Shown piece by piece: positions 3,976 through 60,113 of a stretch of DNA of 64,000 nt. The DNA lies in assembly GCA_012026655.1 (NCBI GenBank), contig JAAILG010001290.1, positions 1-64,000 on the forward strand. Direction: 5' to 3'. The notes beneath the pieces are model-generated. The model saw only the letters and a list, made by a program, of their open reading frames with translations. It did no database searches and was not told the DNA's origin. Every line of letters starts with the position of its first letter. The first letter of the stretch is position 1. The position numbers and the translations under genes were made by a program. This DNA is from Hydrolagus affinis. Its lineage: Eukaryota.

Positions 3976-4390
3976 TCCTCATTCTGATCATTAACTTCTG
4001 ACCATATGCTGCCTCTATTTAACCGTGCCTTCTACTAAATGAAGCACAATTTGACTTTTCATGTGTGTGGCCCTTTATATTCAGGAGAAGTTCCAGCAAC
4101 AACACCTGGACCTCTTTACTGGTTTCACTTGACCTGACCAAAGCAACACAAGTCGAGTTGCCCTTTGGCAACTTCTCGGTAGGGTTGGCTGCCCCACCAA
4201 ATCAACTGAATCCACAGTAGGGTTGAGTGAGACAAGTTTGAATCATTGCTCAATGCCGAACAAGTGTTGCAGCTTCATTCTTTATAGTATTTTCTTAGCT
4301 GTACCACTTTTAGATATTGTGCATTACCCTGGACAAATGAGACAAATCAGTCTTGCAGAGCTGCAGGAAAGCTGTTAAGCAAATCATGGT

Positions 4391-4710
4391 AATAATAATA
4401 ATATTTCTTGCATTTGATATAATGCTTTTCACGTCATCTAGACAGCTCAAAGCGCTTCACAGAATATACCGTAAAGTGAGTTGACTGCATATTTGTGGGC
4501 GAAACGCGACAGCCAATTGTGCACAGCAGTGTCCCACAAACAGTTGTGGATTGAAGTGACAAATTTATTATTGATGTTTTTTCTTGAGGGATTATTATCA
4601 GGCATGTGGAGAAAGGAAACTTGCCCAAGGTTTTGAATAATTAAGGATCTTTACTCAGGACTCTTGCTTGTGAGGCAAATGCTCTAACCACTGAACTACA
4701 GGATTCTACA
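4391..4710 (-). mobile_element. tRNA-derived SINE, family A, near full length
   Basis: Reverse complement starts gaatcctgtagttcagtggttagagcatttg (A box), then cttgggcaagtttcctt, then a 3' body ending tatcaaatgcaag(att)n. Homologous to the copies at 24552, 48790 and 56177. Confidence 0.85.
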
Positions 4711-9559: not shown

Positions 9560-9815
9560 ACTCTGAAACTCCGTCCTACAGTCCCTTCACCTCGCTTCCT
9601 CCCTTGCCTCTTTCAAGGCTGGTCTCAAGACCCTCCTCTTCAACCATGCCTTCTGCTGCCCTCCCAACTCTCTTCCCCTTTTCCTAACTCTCTCCCTCCC
9701 CCTCCACCCTGCCCCTCCCCCTTGCTCGGATCCCAACCTGACTGTTCAGCGACTTGGGACATCCTCCCGATGTGAAAGGCATTCTATAAATGTAAATTGT
9801 GTTGTTTGTTGTTGT
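9560..9815 (+). mobile_element. Older L2 LINE 3' fragment
   Basis: ctctgaaactcc...ttcaaggctggtctcaagaccctcctcttcaaccatgcc (ORF2 end), pyrimidine-rich UTR, tail gcgacttgggacatcctcccgatgtgaaaggcattctataaatgtaa(ttg)n. Confidence 0.85.
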
Positions 9816-10229
9816 ACTGGTATTTGTTTAAACCAAATTCTCATGTATAGCTATGTTTCTGAATGCTCTTAAAAGTTTATTTTCAAAACAAACTTTAATT
9901 TTTTGTGTTTTTCTCCATTTTTCAGTCCTTTATTTTGTGTGTTACGTAAAAGAAAAATGTCATCCTAGTGTGGATGTTCTTTCTGAAAGCTGCTGGGGTA
10001 TGATGGCTTTTATCCAAAACCAACCTAATGTTTGATGGAATGCTAAAGTGCTGTCTACCTCCAATCGTTACCCAGCTACAATCATCTGTGATCATTGCGG
10101 TAAATATAGATCGTGTTTCCAAAACATTCAGAATTGAAATAACTGTTTCTGATGAAAAATGGATGATATGCCAAGGTTGGCAGTAAGATGTGAAGAAAAA
10201 TATACACAAGAGAGACTGACCACATAGCT

Positions 10230-24551: not shown

Positions 24552-24870
24552 ATAATAATAATAATCCTTGCATTTGATATAACACTATTCATATCTACTA
24601 AAAGTCTCAAAGTGTTTCACAGAATATACTGTAAAGTGAATTGTCTATTTTATAAGTGATACGTGGCAGTCGGTTGTATGCAGAAGTGTCCCACGAAGTG
24701 TCATGGATTGAGTGATCAAATTATTATTGGGGGTTTTTCTTGTGGGATTATTATTGGGCATGTGTAGTAAGGAATCTTGTCCAATGGTACAAGTTCCCTG
24801 CCAGGAATTGAACCAAGGTCTCTCACTTGCAAGGCGAGTGTACTAACCACTGAGCTACAGGACTCCACAA
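24552..24870 (-). mobile_element. tRNA-derived SINE, family A, full length with intact Pol III boxes
   Basis: Reverse complement head ggagtcctgTAGCTCAGTGGttagtacactcgccttgcaagtgagagaccttGGTTCAATTCCtggcaggg (A and B boxes). (att)n tail. Confidence 0.9.
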
Positions 24871-32122: not shown

Positions 32123-32871
32123 TTTGATTTTTGCATTAAGAGTTTTCCTTTTTACTTCAAATTCGGTAAAATCCAAAGGAAAAATGATTCGCAGCACCAG
32201 GCACTGCTTTGGATACTGCACAGAATAACTTTCACAAAACACAAAATACTACGGATGCTGGGAATCTGAAACAAAAACAGAAGTTGCTGGGGAAAGTCAG
32301 CAGGTCAGGCAGCATCCATGGAGAAAGGAAAATGAGTCGACGTTTTGGGTCTACAACCCTTCGTCAGAGGGGTTTGACGAAGGGTTGTAGACCTGAAATG
32401 TTGATTCATTTTCCCTTCTCCATGGATGCTGCCTGACCTTCTGACTTTCCCCAGCAACTTCTGTTTTTGTTTCAGAATAACTTTCACATTTGATTGCAGG
32501 CAATAAAATGCACCATTCTTAATTCAGTGTCCATTGTGCTCAAAATATAGTGCAGTAGAATACATGCTGTATTCAGCCAGAAATCCTCTCGCTGTCTGCT
32601 CAGGCAGATTGTTTTGAGACCAATCATTTTAAATTGCAGCAATATACTCCTAACGGTTACTTGACATTAGTCCTCGGCAAATAAACTGTTGTATGTTTGA
32701 AATCTTTGAGTGTACTCCAATTCTTCTATCAGCACTTCATGCTGATGTGAAGCTTACAATTTGGCTTTCATCCAGACCATGATCAAGTCAACTTTCTTCC
32801 ATCTTTATTACATTGGACTGCAATATATCGAATTTGAAGAAAAAAGTAAAAATCTCAATGCAAAAAACAAA
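32123..32871. repeat. 43-bp inverted-repeat pair (32123-32165 / 32829-32871), possibly an old foldback or TIR element
   Basis: Reverse complement of the left arm cgaatttgaagtaaaaaggaaaactcttaatgcaaaaatcaaa vs right arm cgaatttgaagaaaaaagtaaaaatctcaatgcaaaaaacaaa: 38/43 identical, no gaps. Confidence 0.8.
32237..32476. mobile_element. Head-to-head palindromic Penelope-like element end with two degenerate hammerhead cores and a 16-bp TSD
   Basis: Arms 32265-32368 and 32373-32476 (104 bp each, 96/104 identical) around a GGGG loop. Direct repeat cagaataactttcaca at 32221-32236 and 32473-32488. Inferred arm consensus CTGACGA-agggttgtagaccc-GAAA-cgtc. Confidence 0.85.
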
Positions 32872-38169: not shown

Positions 38170-38432
38170 TTTAGTACTCAGCCAAGTACCAGGCTAGACA
38201 TTAAACATCAGTCAGCAGCTGGTGGAACAGGAGCAATGACTGAGCTTAATCCTGTGCTCCCCTGAAATATACACTTCAGCAAGATTTACTGGATAGCAAT
38301 TGGGATTCAGAACCCTGGGTTATTTTGCTACCCTCACTCGGCTCAGATTATTTGTTGAAAGTGAAACCTTGCTAGCCTTTGACTGGCTCAACAACACTTT
38401 GCTGTGTGCTACCCACACAACTGTTGGGCAGT
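38170..38432 (-). mobile_element. Ancient SINE family C (AmnSINE2-like by recall), degraded
   Basis: Reverse complement contains aaaataacccagggttctgaatcccaattgctatccagtaaatcttgctgaag...gagcacaggattaagctcagtca, homologous to the 55905 and 62085 copies. Confidence 0.55.
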
Positions 38433-38437
38433 GCTAC

Positions 38438-38870
38438 AACAACAACAACAAATTACATTTATAGAGCGCCTTTCACGTCGGGAGGACGTCCCAAGGCGCT
38501 GCACAAGAGGCGTGTGACCCGAGCTGGGAAGGGAGTGTTCGGGAAGGGGTGAAACACGTAGGGGAGGTCGAAAAATTCAGGGTGGAACAAAAGGCACGGT
38601 CGAAGAGGAAAGTCTTCAAACCGGCCTTGAAAGAAGAAAGGGAAGAAACGAGATGGAGGGATTGGGGGATGGAATTCCATAGGGTGGGAGCGGAGAAACT
38701 GAAGGCCCGGCCTCCGATGGTGGGGCGGTTCGGGCAAGGGGCTTGGAGCAGGCCAAGTCCTGCTGAACGGAGGGTCCGGGTGGGCTTGTAGGGGGAGAGT
38801 AGATTGGTTAAGTAGGGCGGGGCAAGGCCATGTAAGGCCTTGAAAGTGAGGACGAGGATCTTGAACTCGA
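38438..38870 (-). mobile_element. Young 5'-truncated L2 LINE with ORF2 C-terminus and candidate TSD
   Basis: Reverse complement translates EFKILVLTFKALHGLAPPYLTNLLSPYKPTRTLRSAGLGLL, a typical L2 ORF2 end, then UTR, stem-loop and (ttg)n. gctac is duplicated at 38433-38437 and 38871-38875. Confidence 0.92.
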
Positions 38871-43807: not shown

Positions 43808-44201
43808 ACTATTTCTCGTCTTCAAAGCCCTCCATGGCCTTGACCCCCACCTACCTCTGCGACCTCTTAACCCCCTACCAACCTATCCATCCATCAACTC
43901 AGATGGCTCCGGCCTGCTCCACATCCCCCAACCCACCCATCCCACCATCGGCGGGCGAACCTTCAACCACCAACCTTTGGAATTCCAGTCCGCAATCCCT
44001 CCGCTTTGCCCCCTCCCTAGCCTCCTTCAAATCCCACCTCAATACCCTCCGTTTCGACTGTGCCATTCGTCACCTCCCCCCCCACCGTCCCTCCATTCTC
44101 CCTGATCCCAATCCTAGCTGGTCCGAAACACTGACTGTCCAGTGCCTTGGTCCTCCTGACGAGAAAGGCGCTATACAAATGTAATTTTTTTTGTCGTTGT
44201 T
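43808..44201 (+). mobile_element. L2 LINE 3' fragment, second subfamily
   Basis: ctcgtcttcaaagccctccatggcctt translates to LVFKALHGL. LWNS.PQSLRFAPSLASFKSHL follows. Tail gaaaggcgctatacaaatgtaa(t)n. Confidence 0.9.
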
Positions 44202-44673
44202 CTACTTGTTCCTTGATTTCCTCCCCCTTACACATTCTCACAGCCTCCCTTTCAAAGGCACAATTTTTAAAAAATGTTTCCGTGTTTCAAATATTTTGTT
44301 GAGATCATTTCAGTTTATTTTTTTGACTGGCAAATAATGTGCTGTGTTCTGTCTTTGAAGGTTTACTCTGCTCTCGGGCTGATAGTTAGTATCAGTAGGT
44401 GTGAACAAAATGTACTCTGTTAAAGCAGGGTTTATTGTATTCATTGTAGAAATTACAGCAACGCATGTGCTGCATTTTTGCCTCTCAGAGTTGACACTCA
44501 GTGAAGCCTGTTGTTCCCTTTCAGAACGACTTTCATTCATGTTATCAATATGAATGGGCTTAAAGGAGTGAGATATATACCCACCTACCAGATTGCTGGC
44601 TTTATGTGGTGCTTTCGGTGCTGGTGGCAGCATGATCACACCCCTGCCTCCTCCAATCAGGGTCTGAAATCTA

Positions 44674-44777
44674 TCAGTTCTGACAAAGGGCCATGGACCC
44701 GAAACGTTGACTCACTTTCCTTTCTCCATGGATGCTGCCTGACCTGCTGAGTTTTCCCAGCAACTTCTGTTTTTGTT
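44674..44777 (+). mobile_element. 104-bp Penelope-like monomer with an 11-bp TSD
   Basis: Homologous to one arm of the 32 kb palindrome. Flanked by tctgaaatcta at 44663-44673 and 44778-44788. Confidence 0.85.
44676..44712 (+). ncRNA. Degenerate minimal type I hammerhead ribozyme motif
   Basis: agtt (helix I) - CTGACAA (core CUGANGA with G8>A) - a-gggcc-atg-gaccc (helix II) - GAAA - CGTT (palindromic helix III, UH site) - gact (helix I 3' strand). Probably inactive as it stands. Confidence 0.6.
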
Positions 44778-47702
44778 TCTGAAATCTAACTTCCTGGTCA
44801 TCTCCTCTTTCCAATCCAGTAATTAACAGCTGGTGCAGCAGATGTATGTCGCCAGTGTGAAACCATTTCCTGATTACACCTTCCACAACAGCAACACTCT
44901 ACACTCTGGAAAAACATCTTCAATTAGATAAAAGGTTTTAAAATAGAATTGGAATTGGTGACTCCTAAAACCGGCTGATAGGGTAGCCTGAGGGATTATG
45001 CAATTCAGTGCTTTTATTGGGAACGTCTGCTTCAAATATCCAGTATTCTGTGTGATGATGTGGGATGAACTTTTCTAATCTCTAGTTGTGCTTTAGGCCT
45101 ATTTTGTTTGAAACTTGTGGCCTCTGAATCTGCTCGTGTGCATTTTATAATCTGTGCCTTATTTTTAAAGGGAGAGATGCATCATCAAAGAGTTTCATGT
45201 CTTCCCTTGTGCATTCAGAGTGAGAACATATGAACCGCTTCACATGCCTTGTAAATTTTCATAAGGTGCTTGGTATTCTGCAACTGTAATATTATCTTAA
45301 TTGTGCTATTTGTACATATTGCAAGAAAATATAAGGATATTAATGCCAAAGAAATGTCCCATCCAAAATGAATTGTTTTCAGGACAAACTCTTTCATAAA
45401 GCAATCTTATGAAAGTCCAATGAATTGACCATGATTGTCTCGAATGCATTTCTAGTTTGGATTTAAAATTTGGGGGGACTTGATGACATCCAAACTAGAA
45501 GATACAGAGATAAGCTCAGTTAAGTGAAAAAACATTTGCTTTGTAAGCTGCCAAATACATTAAAAAAATTGCTTTGTTCTATTCTCAGTTTCCGTTTCAC
45601 TGCTACACTGGCTGCATAGTACAACATACATCAAACTTTATATGTGCGTGTGGTGTTTTTTGTTTGTTTCAGATGTCTGGATTCTTCCCAAAGTTTTAGT
45701 TTTTAACGAAAGAGGTTTAGTAGAAAAGGTGTACCAATTTCATTGCAATGCATGCTTGACCACAGCTGCTTACAACATTTGTGCTGGAGTGATGTTTTTG
45801 TTGTAGCGATTTATTTCTGGAAATTCTCTATCAAAAATGTAATGGTATAGTTTCTAATGATAGAGTAGGACACTGAAACCCACAGTAAGTACATGGGAAG
45901 ATTTAAGATGACATAGGGAATGAGGATGATGGGATCGAGGCAGTATTCAGACCCTTATAGATGGTATAAGAATGGTGGTGATCTGTGCTACTTAACATTT
46001 TCATGATTCTTAAGAAATAAAGAATATTAAGTTAGACTGTGACTGAATGGAATTTGCAAACTATTAATTATCTTGAAATAAAATGAAATAAAATGAGAAA
46101 GCAACAAGAGCCAAGCAGATATTTCATAGTCCTTTAGATGTCTGGCCCAGTGGATGTGTGCTTAGATATGATCATCCCTTCTACTCCCATAAATTGTTCG
46201 GGCAAGGGTGTAGGAATTAATTTGTCTGAAGTAATGTTGCTGTTCCTTTAGTGCTCGATGTTGAATATCATTTTGGGCTCTTGCTATTCTTGATGTCTTT
46301 TCTCTGTTAAATTGTAAAAGCCATCCCTCCTGTATGGGATGAGGGAGGACAGAGAAGCCGAAGGCACAGTTGATTAATACTATATGGAGTATATATATAT
46401 GTGATATATTTTGTACTTTAAGATTATATCTCTTGGGTTGTATCTTTGAACAAATATTCTAGTCTGGGTTTAAGCTGCTCTGTGGAGGATTAACTTGGTT
46501 ACATTTCTTATGTCTGAGGAAGAATGTGCTTTTACACTAATTTTAGATCTTTGTTAAGACTGTGAGCCATATGTGTCCACATTTTGTCCTGGTATGTTTT
46601 TCTGCTTCTAATTTGGAGATTGAGATGTTTAGACAATTGCGAAACAGTGGTTTGATGCTTTATCAATTTATCAAGTGGCGTTCAACTACAAAGAGTTGGA
46701 ATTCACATAAATTTGTGTATTTTTAAATATTTCCAAAATTTGGGGCATTTTTGTTTTTTTGGTTCAGTTTGATGACTGTTATTACCACACTAGATAGCTA
46801 GTCCATAACTCAATGTGATTTGGCAAGGGTTTGGTCTAATTTTAAACAGTGTTTATGGAAAGAATGTCCCCCCTTGGTCCATTGTGGTGAGTTTGTCCTT
46901 ACATTGCTTTGGAAATGTCTCACCAGTTGATGCTACTAAGTTTTCTCCTCCCTGGATAAAGATCTTGGAAGGACATAAATAAACCAGCAAACAATAGACT
47001 CTGGACAAGCATCTTGAGATGTCAAGATGTTCGAAAGCTTTGTTTCAAAGCATCTTTATTTTTGTTCCTTGTACATATTGTGAGATATATTGTCTCCATA
47101 TACTACACCAACATCCTTTCTGTCTATCAATTAGCAGTAGCACTCTCAGCTGATGTATTTGAGCCAGAGATAGCAATTGCTCATTCGGTACAGATCATGT
47201 TTAGGCCATTTATTAATAATAATAATCATGATTTCATTTGAAATTAACACTTACATATTGGGATGGCATTTCAAAGTCCTTTGCAAGATTACTATAATAT
47301 AATACATTAGAAAAGTCCAGTTGCCAGGGAAGAAGTCCTGAGATGGACCTGAAAACAAACAGTGGGTATAAGTAATTTTTATTTGCATATATGTTCTCCA
47401 GGAGATAAAATGGGTGTGGTGGAGTGCATACCCACAGGTATGTTCTGTCTGGTCTGTGGGAGAAGCAGGCATGGATCAGCCAAATAGTTTGGGCTATTTT
47501 CCATCTGAAATCGTATTCGGCATCTGCTGTGCACGTGCATGTGTGTGAGTGGATGAACATGTCCTGTGTGCGCTTGTGGGTGGAAGTAATCTGACACGAA
47601 TAACTCTTGTGAAGGTTAATGACCACAATGTGATATTTTTGAAAAAAAAAGCTTTCGCAAGATTACCTTGAGATTATGCCTTGAGATACTCAATCGCTCA
47701 TA

Positions 47703-47815: not shown

Positions 47816-48789
47816 AAGACATTTGTATTTGGACAAAGATTATTTTGAAATCTAGTTCTTGGTCAGATTTAGCATTTGATGTATATGTAATGGTTTCTTA
47901 TCATTGATCTAAATTGCCCTACCAACTAAGTATCCATAGGAATTCCCCATTATTTTTCTAGGTGCATTCAACATTAGTCAAAAATAATGAATATAAATCC
48001 TGGTTCCTAAAATGTTAACGGCCTGTTCAGCGGTTGAAATAGTTGTGCTCCAATACTCCTGGGTCGTTCATTGTGTTTGCACTTGGGATCTAATTTGTTA
48101 CTTCACTGCCAATTGTGAATGTTTCTGAAATCTGTTACTAAAAAGACTGAAGTACTCTCATGTCCCATTGCAGAGCATCCTTGATGCAAAGTTCCCTCTC
48201 CTGGCATTTTCTATCCAGCAAACCCAATGTTCCAGTTAGGCCATGCAAATTGTGGCCAGCATTCAATGGAGAGGTAACAAATTTCACTTCAGGGTTATAG
48301 CGCACACAAGCTCCAATTGATCTCTACCCCATAAAAATGGAGAAACTGTTTCATGCAAAGTAAAGAAGGAAGCATGATTATTTAGTTAGAACCTTGGAAT
48401 ATCCTCCTGATGTGAAATGCACTGTACAAATGTAATTTTGTTTGCATTACTTTGAAAACAATTTTGGTGTAATTGGTGTTTTTTGCTCTGGAAACTGTAT
48501 TCATTAATGGTCACTTCTGAGTAACATCTGTGAAATATCAATTCTAGCATCTTTTCCTTTCCTGTCAATAAATTACAAAATCCACAGGTGGCCATTTTGC
48601 AGTTAGCTTAGATTGTTTAAGAATGAATGCTTGGCATTGTAACCAATTAGTATTGGATGAGCTCTCCTGCCCTACTCGAGGGTGCTGAAACCTGTGAGTC
48701 TTTGACTCTTACAAGCTGTTTACAGCTGCTGAACAAGAGACAGATAAACTGGTTCCAGTTACCAAATACTACTACTGTGAATGCTGGGA

Positions 48790-49053
48790 TCTTCTAGACA
48801 TACCAAAGCGCTTCACGGAATATGCTGAAAAGTGAATTGACTGTATATATGTGGGTGAAATGCGGCAGCCAATTATGCACAACAGTGTTCCACAAACAGT
48901 CGTAGATTGAAATGACCAAGTTTTTTTTGAAGGATTATTATTAGGTGTGCGGAATAAGGAAACTTGGCCAAGGTTTTACCCTGCCTGGAATTGAACCCAG
49001 TTCTCTCGTTTGTAAAGCGAGTGCTCTAACCAATGAAATACAGCACTCCACAA
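48790..49053 (-). mobile_element. SINE family A lacking its extreme tail
   Basis: Reverse complement head ggagtgctgtatttcattggttagagcactcgctttacaaacgagagaactgggttcaattccaggcaggg, then cttggccaagtttcctt and the family body. Confidence 0.88.
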
Positions 49054-49078
49054 AATACACAAAAGAGGAAATGTATGA

Positions 49079-55904: not shown

Positions 55905-56545
55905 AAACCCAGCCATACAGACAGAAAGGTTGCAGATCCAAATCCTGTGCTGAGCTAACTAATCTCAGTCAGCGTACTATTTGGGGAATTGTACCTCTGG
56001 ATTCAGGAAGGGGAAATTAGACAGGATTGTCTAGAGACCTGATAAAAGGTGTGTGTTCACATCTGCTGGAGACAGAACTGGGCTCAACTGTAATTCTCCA
56101 TCACCTCGACCACTGTCATAACCTGTCAAGTCATACATGTGAATAATACCACCTGATTTGTGTGAATAAATTGTGTGGAGTCCTGTATCTTAGTGGTTAA
56201 AGCACTTGCGTCTCAAGCGAGAGACCTGGGTTCCAGGCGGGACAAAACTTTGGGCAAGTTTCCTTACTCCACACGCCTAATAATAATCCTTTTGAAAAAA
56301 AAATGAAGAATTGGTCATTTTCAATCCACGACTGTTTGTGGACCACTGCTGTGCGCAATTGCCTGTCATGTTTCATGGACAAATACAAAGTCAATTCACT
56401 TTACAGTATATTCTATGAAGTGCTTTGAGATCACTAGAAGATCTGAAAAGCTCTATATCAAATGCAAGATCATTATTATTATTATTAATAACCACTTGTG
56501 TCTGACACCCTTGGAACCTTACCCCATCAGAACCAAAAATGCATC
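55905..56545 (+). mobile_element. Ancient SINE family C (AmnSINE2-like by recall), split by a younger SINE
   Basis: agccatacagacagaaaggttgcagatccaaatcctgtgctgagctaactaatctcag...ggaaggggaaattagacagg, resuming after 56484 with accacttgtg...cccttggaaccttacccca. Confidence 0.55.
56177..56484 (+). mobile_element. tRNA-derived SINE, family A, full length
   Basis: ggagtcctgtatcttagtggttaaagcacttgcg...gagacctgggttcc, ttgggcaagtttccttactccacacgcc, tail ctatatcaaatgcaagatc(att)n. Confidence 0.9.
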
Positions 56546-60013: not shown

Positions 60014-60113
60014 NNNNNNNNNNNNNNNNNNNNNNNNNNNNNNNNNNNNNNNNNNNNNNNNNNNNNNNNNNNNNNNNNNNNNNNNNNNNNNNNNNNNNNN
60101 NNNNNNNNNNNNN
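60014..60113. other. Assembly gap (100 N)
   Basis: Run of exactly 100 N, a common placeholder for a gap of unknown size. Confidence 0.98.

Follow-up and report, generated by a model that had tools for sequence, protein, structure and literature searches.

A 104-bp hammerhead-bearing insert in Hydrolagus affinis reads as a solo pLTR of a Neptune-type Penelope-like element whose copies share recurrent end points

Results

The stretch of DNA analyzed here, called the window, covers 64,000 nt of the Hydrolagus affinis genome (assembly GCA_012026655.1, contig JAAILG010001290.1, positions 1 to 64,000, forward strand). At 44.7 kb, it holds an insert of 104 bp between two exact plus-strand copies of TCTGAAATCTA, at 44663 to 44673 and 44778 to 44788. 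This is the only 11-mer direct repeat spaced 100 to 130 nt in the 64-kb window. The initial annotation had taken the pair as a real 11-bp target-site duplication (TSD) of a 104-bp unit. The repeats and their spacing are exact, and the TSD reading holds family-wide, with duplications of at least 9 nt flanking 44 of 85 insertions versus 17 of 2,000 mismatched flank pairs. We found no empty site for the locus in the sequencing runs examined.

We numbered the unit from A44676, the first base of helix I of a hammerhead motif. The hammerhead is +1 to +37, and the predicted cut falls after +33. Two nucleotides of junction filler, TC (44674 to 44675, plus strand), follow the left TSD, and the C may be element position -1. 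The element sequence preceding AGTT is CCCC, and the commonest non-CC form of the CAGTT junctions among the first 100 matches listed is TC-AGTT. The decayed minimal type I hammerhead motif spans 44676 to 44712 on the plus strand and is recognized by its sequence, its column counts, its pairs, and the descriptor features in the accessible text of PMC4209133. It begins with the 5' strand of helix I, AGTT (44676 to 44679), followed by the core CTGACAA (44680 to 44686), an extra A (44687), stem II (44688 to 44700), GAAA (44701 to 44704), and an ACGT palindrome (44704 to 44707). The predicted cut is after 44708, and the 3' strand of helix I, GACT, closes the motif (44709 to 44712). These letters are as first described. 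The remaining pLTR, delimited by comparison with the subfamily B majority, runs from 44713 to 44777 on the plus strand, to a tail-less 3' end at +102. The next two bases, TC, are compatible with both the element and the TSD.

Compared with the subfamily B majority, the window copy has 3 changes over 102 nt, which affect G8, one pair of stem II, and one base in a loop. Its core is not intact: it carries G8>A at 44685 and a second lesion, overlooked in the first reading, namely, T>C at 44691, by which stem II acquires a C-A mismatch. The G8 change had been attributed to CpG decay, and the column counts confirm this. Position 8 is G in 67, A in 15, and C in 1 of 83 sampled arms, and the dinucleotide at the site is CG in 46, CA in 14, TG in 12, and another in 3 of 75, a symmetric decay. 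The consensus had also been predicted to have an intact core, and the family majority does read CUGACGA plus GAAA, in agreement with CUGANGA/GAAA. In the unbiased sample, both boxes are retained in 37 of 75 arms. Because of its two hammerhead lesions and the absence of an upstream TATA-like box, the window copy is predicted to be dead.

Helices I and II, the extra base between 9 and 10.1, the G10.1-C11.1 pair, and the palindromic 15.2-16.2 bases support the earlier assignment to minimal type I hammerheads with a palindromic helix III. In the accessible text of PMC4209133, the min-HHR of metazoan Penelope-like elements (PLEs) shares these features with our motif, as well as a short helix I, the absence of helix III, and the occurrence mostly as single dispersed motifs tied to truncated PLEs. 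However, helix II has 5 bp here and 7 to 8 bp in the Schistosoma motifs of that text, and the window copy departs from its min-HHR descriptor by the two lesions. The words "shark" and "Callorhinchus" are absent from two supplement files of PMC4209133. Pair +17/+21 is either C-G (94) or U-G (87), and two-sided compensation was not seen. In the computed lowest-energy fold of the monomer, the core would pair with the ACGU segment, an inactive form. An Rfam scan found no hammerhead at E ≤ 1 in the window, and five loci whose copies are close to the majority gave none at E ≤ 5. These negatives do not count against the motif, because the minimal form has no helix III. Single minimal hammerhead motifs did not cleave, according to the available part of PMC4209133.

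A palindrome at 32.2 to 32.5 kb of the window consists of two further copies of the unit, inserted head to head with a 16-bp duplication of their own. The left TSD (32221 to 32236, plus strand) is repeated exactly by the right TSD (32473 to 32488, plus strand). The tailed arm, on the minus strand at 32235 to 32368, covers +4 to +137, matches subfamily A at 95.5% over 134 nt, and has a mutated GAAA box. The tail-less arm, on the plus strand at 32375 to 32476, covers +6 to about +106, matches subfamily A at 92% over 102 nt, and has core C3 replaced. The initial annotation had given the 44.7-kb unit the same span as each palindrome arm. This is true of the right arm but not of the left, to which the tail adds about 33 nt. 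The match of the left arm to the 44.7-kb copy ends only because the latter has no tail.

An internal 22-mer of the unit (+48 to +69) is matched exactly at least 4,973 times in the 1.11-Gb genome, and the reversed 22-mer used as a control is not matched at all. Copies extend upstream as a ladder of lengths, into degraded coding sequence. When loci were picked by their RT region, the unit lay about 1.4 kb downstream of the RT in 24 of 30, and 5 of the 6 RT loci without it end before that point. The PLE origin proposed at the outset is thereby supported, with an RT and a GIY-YIG nuclease upstream in 24 of 30. YIDD occurs in 22 of the 30 RT loci, a GIY-YIG-type motif (YCIxCxxCGxxYIGE, of a C-terminal endonuclease [EN] with a C/H motif) in 15, and DKG in 5, which are longer copies only. 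RVT_1 matched a 487-aa open stretch in Pfam with an E value of 1.5e-6 (score 28.6; curated cutoff, 29.6), and the GIY-YIG match was weak (E = 0.25, below the curated cutoff). In each of two Pfam searches, 2 of 3 peptides had no match, and a PDB sequence search found nothing. No intact ORF was found in the fetched loci, where the longest open stretch was 487 aa; the assembly consists of 245,464 contigs.

A CQRRRCNTC-type Zn-finger-like motif lies between RT and EN in the translations, and a loose pattern for it was found in 22 of 30 loci. A motif of this kind in this place is a mark of Neptune and Nematis in the accessible text of PMC8557442. The PLE would thus be assigned to the Neptune type by a motif that it shares with Nematis. 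There is a pLTR at both ends: +1 to +137 terminates copies and also precedes the 5' body, the start of which equals the tail, so that the tail is continued by the 5' body and the ORF start. Therefore, the unit is the pLTR plus tail of a roughly 3.2-kb element. The available sections of PMC8557442 and PMC3846280 describe EN+ PLEs of the Neptune type as having a pLTR, a 30- to 40-bp tail, and an inverted 5'-truncated arm. An optional tail at one end, an inverted arm, and a TSD are all present in our sampled copies. We conclude that the insert is almost certainly a solo, tail-less pLTR copy of an abundant Neptune-type PLE. As a decayed solo pLTR, it is of a known kind.

To plot copy ends, we took the first 100 listed matches of the 22-mer (those on the longest contigs) and fetched 99 of them. 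After duplicate filtering, 98 arms remained, representing 85 insertions, 39 solo and 46 head to head. Copies shorter than the anchor are absent from this sample because the anchor lies at +48 to +69. The 3' ends are bimodal, a pattern already known from the tail of PLEs. Fifty-three of the 98 arms are tailed, 50 of them ending at +136/137 (+137 is the reference end), and 39 of the 45 tail-less arms end at +94 to +112. At the 5' side, 52 of 98 arms end at -6 to +6, 30 inside the unit, and 16 at least 10 bases upstream. The 5' stop rate per nucleotide is 6.4% at -6 to +6, 0.75% inside the unit, and 1.2% just upstream of it. These two 3' sites and the 5' pile-up at helix I agree with the earlier suspicion that the ends are not those of random truncation. 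The exact class of the window copy (solo, tail-less, starting at helix I) accounts for 8 of 85 insertions. The TSDs are 70% A+T versus 60% in the background, and there is no overall preference for insertion near a tRNA-headed SINE (20/85 versus 19/85 controls). Among the papers listed in literature searches, no title or abstract opening states that the 5' ends of PLE copies accumulate at helix I.

Genome-wide, 3,313 copies match +2 to +16 exactly. The match continues into the upstream element in 1,335 of them and is lost within three bases upstream of +2 in the other 1,978 (at +1 in 861, at -1 in 586, and at -2 in 531). The +1 context is CCAGTTC in both subfamilies, and TTAA(A/G)AA stands near -30 in both. 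The former fits the initiator pattern YYANWYY, and the latter is TATA-like. Among copies that enter from the body, 4 of 6 independent insertions reaching the hammerhead stop at about +1, and 2 go further upstream. The pLTR side of the junction lies at -3 to +1 in 9 of 14 independent chimeras, further upstream in 4, and at +9 in 1. The body partners of the 9 lie at eight different sites, from about +265 to +1,120, with short microhomology or filler at the joints. A fixed pLTR side and a varied body side are what a template end followed by a jump would be expected to produce.

Of the first 100 non-C junctions, 46 have a G immediately before +1, where 25 would be expected (P = 6e-6), and there is no such excess at the neighboring positions (30/100 at +1 and 11/100 at -2; all hand counts). 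The excess may come from a copied cap. However, it is only suggestive and no clean cap signature, because 24 of 33 G junctions inspected read TG and 7 of the 33 read CTG, as at an internal CTGAGTT site where re-priming could occur. Poly(A) single-cell reads of another organism include 6,188 that cover the unit, 86% of which run on into unlike sequence, and there is no place where many molecules begin or end in them. These reads are uninformative on the start site because the library is not of a 5'-end type. Judged from the DNA junctions, 44676, that is, +1, is likely the transcription start. PLE pLTRs hold promoters, according to the accessible parts of PMC3846280 and PMC2377424.

Alternatively, the +1 edge might arise because the RNA is processed at a 3' splice site (CAG-TT) or because the RT stalls at the base of helix I. 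In both subfamilies, the sequence before +3 comprises a pyrimidine tract, a YTRAC-like word, and CAG, which look like parts of a splice acceptor. Nevertheless, of the 23 solo copies whose TSD is at least 10 nt, 20 have target DNA right next to +1, separated from it by no more than a short filler (-4 to 25 nt). Among 60 junctions (one a duplicate), we found no shared upstream exon, and 1,117 of the 1,978 noncontinuing copies still have A at +1. Nor is there a fixed donor among the chimeras, whose body junctions vary and show short microhomology or filler. We rejected host-exon splicing into CAG-TT on account of the short fillers and the lack of a shared exon, and a fixed splice donor in the body on account of the varying junctions. 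If RNA structure made the RT stall, the stop would be expected ahead of a helix rather than behind it. In Drosophila virilis Penelope, transcription starts 46 nt before a 75-nt intron (available text of PMC2377424), the 3' end of which maps to helix I (available text of PMC4209133). This precedent favors a splice site, since helix I there is a splice site and not a start, the start preceding the intron that ends at it. Overall, we consider that splicing or stalling is unlikely to set the edge and retain the transcription start.

The initial annotation had gone further and read the unit as a discrete non-autonomous, retrozyme/SINE-like family. In that case, short copies would be re-transcribed from an internal promoter and mobilized in trans by a PLE. 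The fixed ends fit such a family, with 23 of 39 solo insertions starting at -6 to +6 (15 tailed and 8 tail-less), and the internal promoter of D. virilis Penelope described in the available text of PMC2377424 means that a copy starting at +1 could be transcribed. The TATA-like word near -30 lies outside the unit. However, 5'-truncated copies of very different lengths also terminate in this sequence. The eight commonest haplotypes of short copies are all present in long copies (the latter from biased queries), and short-only haplotypes amount to three rare ones (1 to 3 copies) among 30 printed. Subfamily B is rich in short copies, since 536 of 1,609 (33%) continue upstream versus 799 of 1,704 (47%) for the rest (Fisher P = 0.023 in the sample), and this leaves room for some re-amplification of short copies. 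Still, a third to a half of core copies continue upstream in both subfamilies, so both have coding relatives. Two-armed insertions (46/85) exceed solo ones, the 104-nt class is only the 8 of 85 noted above, and the unit does not end at the predicted cut site of the ribozyme.

The accessible text of the preprint 10.64898/2026.07.22.740005 argues that animal retrozymes derive from PLE pLTRs, and its non-LTR retrozymes resemble the insert in being non-coding, in having a type I hammerhead, and in their relation to PLE pLTRs. However, they are tandem repeats with a hammerhead in each unit, and the definition given there requires a tandem array. The insert is solo, and its relatives are head to head or contiguous with the coding element, unlike those retrozymes. 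No head-to-tail array with a hammerhead per unit occurs among the 85 insertions, no array of the short unit was found in the loci examined, and the partial tandems that we saw include 130 to 1,100 nt of PLE body. The regular span is better explained by an RT that starts at fixed sites and runs off the 5' end of its template than by a separate family. A discrete family is thus quite improbable, and the unit is very probably not an independent one.

Random 5' truncation of an ordinary PLE copy, in which the span would have no special meaning, is consistent with the 5' ends that also ladder inside the unit (30/98), upstream to -816, and beyond 2.5 kb. It is nevertheless very hard to sustain, as stops are 5 to 8 times as frequent per base at -6 to +6 as they are to its left or right, and the genome-wide counts show the same step. 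Self-cleavage by the hammerhead might be suspected from the intact majority core and the many arms with both boxes, but it has next to no chance of being the source of the unit, because the predicted cut after +33 is internal to the unit, arms with an end at +30 to +38 number just 3 of 93, and the 5' stop rate around the site is 0.36% per nt. Self-cleavage is thereby contradicted for integrated copies, which has no bearing on cutting at another stage.

We then considered the two arms of the head-to-head insertions together. After setting aside three with an arm ending before +80, 43 of the 46 were informative, and exactly one arm was tailed in 43 of 43 (P = 7e-14 if arms are independent). The tail-less arm reaches +1 with the tailed arm stopping inside the unit in 14 of 43, and the reverse is seen in 3 of 43. 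This asymmetry suggests that the two arms were reverse transcribed separately, each from a priming site of its own. We rejected the fold-back of a single tailed cDNA as a general source of the palindromes, because those 14 tail-less arms hold 5' sequence that is missing from the tailed arm. The two arms belong to one subfamily in 36 of 37 pairs. Arm-to-arm divergence is 6.7% (29 loci) versus 7.4% between copies of one subfamily, a value so little lower that one shared RNA molecule for both arms is not established.

A one-sided tail is already described qualitatively in the accessible text of PMC3846280 and PMC8557442. In the same parts, on EN+ PLEs of the Neptune type, we found neither the strict rule (43/43) nor a 5' pile-up at the first base of helix I stated. 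We infer the strictness of the rule, and its reading as twin priming, from the present analysis.

Discussion

The span of the unit probably reflects run-off from fixed internal priming to the 5' end of an uncut RNA that starts at +1. In this scenario, the pLTR promoter would start the RNA at +1, and the GIY-YIG nuclease would make staggered nicks. The RT would then start, in either of the two pLTR copies that the RNA contains, from about +102 or +137. Starts in the 3' copy would give long 5'-truncated inserts, and those in the 5' copy would give run-off cDNAs of 102 or 137 nt. If both nicks primed, one at each site, the two cDNAs would join head to head, and a run-off cDNA that jumped into the body would yield a partial tandem.

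More tentatively, and at somewhat less than even odds, we suggest that PLEs make a "strong-stop"-like cDNA, in which a PLE dimer would prime from the nicks on both target strands at two fixed sites (one per strand) of a capped RNA that begins at +1, and the cDNA would run off its 5' end and then jump. If this is true, that mechanism alone would account for the solo pLTRs, for the exactly one tail of head-to-head insertions, and for partial tandems, by which a pLTR is regenerated. The origin of such tandems is called unexplained in the available text of PMC2377424.

The closest parallel is the Poseidon element of Anolis carolinensis, PAc, in the accessible text of PMC11167929. In vitro, its reverse transcription starts at two internal sites, one on each side of the tail; both strands are extended, and the RNA that serves as the substrate is uncleaved. 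PAc resembles the present family, as read here, in having two internal RT start sites that bound the tail, about 100 to 140 nt downstream of the hammerhead, as well as AT-rich targets and uncut RNA as the template. It differs in belonging to another clade and in priming at an AC-rich stem-loop, in contrast to the U/G-rich ends here. Genomic 5' run-off products are not discussed in that part of the text.

To such work, the family-level counts add coordinates: +1, about +102, +137, and the cut site at +33. For annotators, they carry a warning, since stubs of this kind resemble SINEs or MITEs and belong under their parent PLE. The thousands of copies are a record of where PLE reverse transcription starts and stops, and this record bears on how the pLTR is rebuilt, on the one-sided tail, and on the role of the hammerhead.

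A tRNA-headed SINE of about 320 bp, which ends in (AAT)n, is abundant. In the window, copies lie on the minus strand at 4390-4710, 24552-24870 and 48788-49056, and on the plus strand at 56174-56487. An Rfam search of the window placed the head at 24797-24861 above the tRNA cut-off. A second dispersed repeat family, which ends in (TTG)n, is present at 1-171, 9561-9819, 38429-38844 and 43821-44200, and short pieces of it are scattered throughout the window. Its stretches at 1-171 and 38438-38608 are inverted relative to each other and 95% alike. The sole N run of the window is a 100-N assembly gap at 60014-60113.

Overall, insertions of the Neptune-type Penelope-like element (PLE) were not enriched beside the SINE, which adjoined 20 of the 85 sampled insertions and 19 of 85 controls. 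Among the 20 SINE-flanked insertions, 9 had a junction within one 20-bp stretch, SINE positions 239-259 (in the flanks of loci L099, L106, L108, L113, L114, L130, L139, L144 and L147). This stretch is possibly a nuclease hotspot.

The tail-less end of the PLE is located where a pyrimidine tract runs into CAG, at +95 to +106 counted from the first base of hammerhead helix I, both in the window (44770-44779) and in tailed copies. Judged by its sequence, this motif, where the tail starts, looks like a candidate splice acceptor; a donor to go with it was not identified. In the RNA reads of X21, a run from another organism, first mates on the element 3' region (L088:1182-1420) fell on the minus strand about 4 to 6 times more often. 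If the library is stranded, this bias would fit long copies being transcribed in the sense direction.

The chimeric PLE insertion at L272 (860-2100) has two pLTRs, separated by about 1 kb of the 5' body, and a 13-bp duplication. It was seen again on several contigs with flanks in common (L274, L275, L276, L278, L285 and L289), and was therefore amplified within a larger repeat or duplication. L266 records an independent jump at the identical body site, which is similar to the hammerhead start. Where copies enter from the 5' body, the 5' end is often located between +89 and +112, which is the site of tail-less priming (L294, L295, L299, L302, L307, L309, L311, L312, L316 and L321). It is as if a jumping reverse transcriptase halts where its own cDNA, or that of a partner, started.
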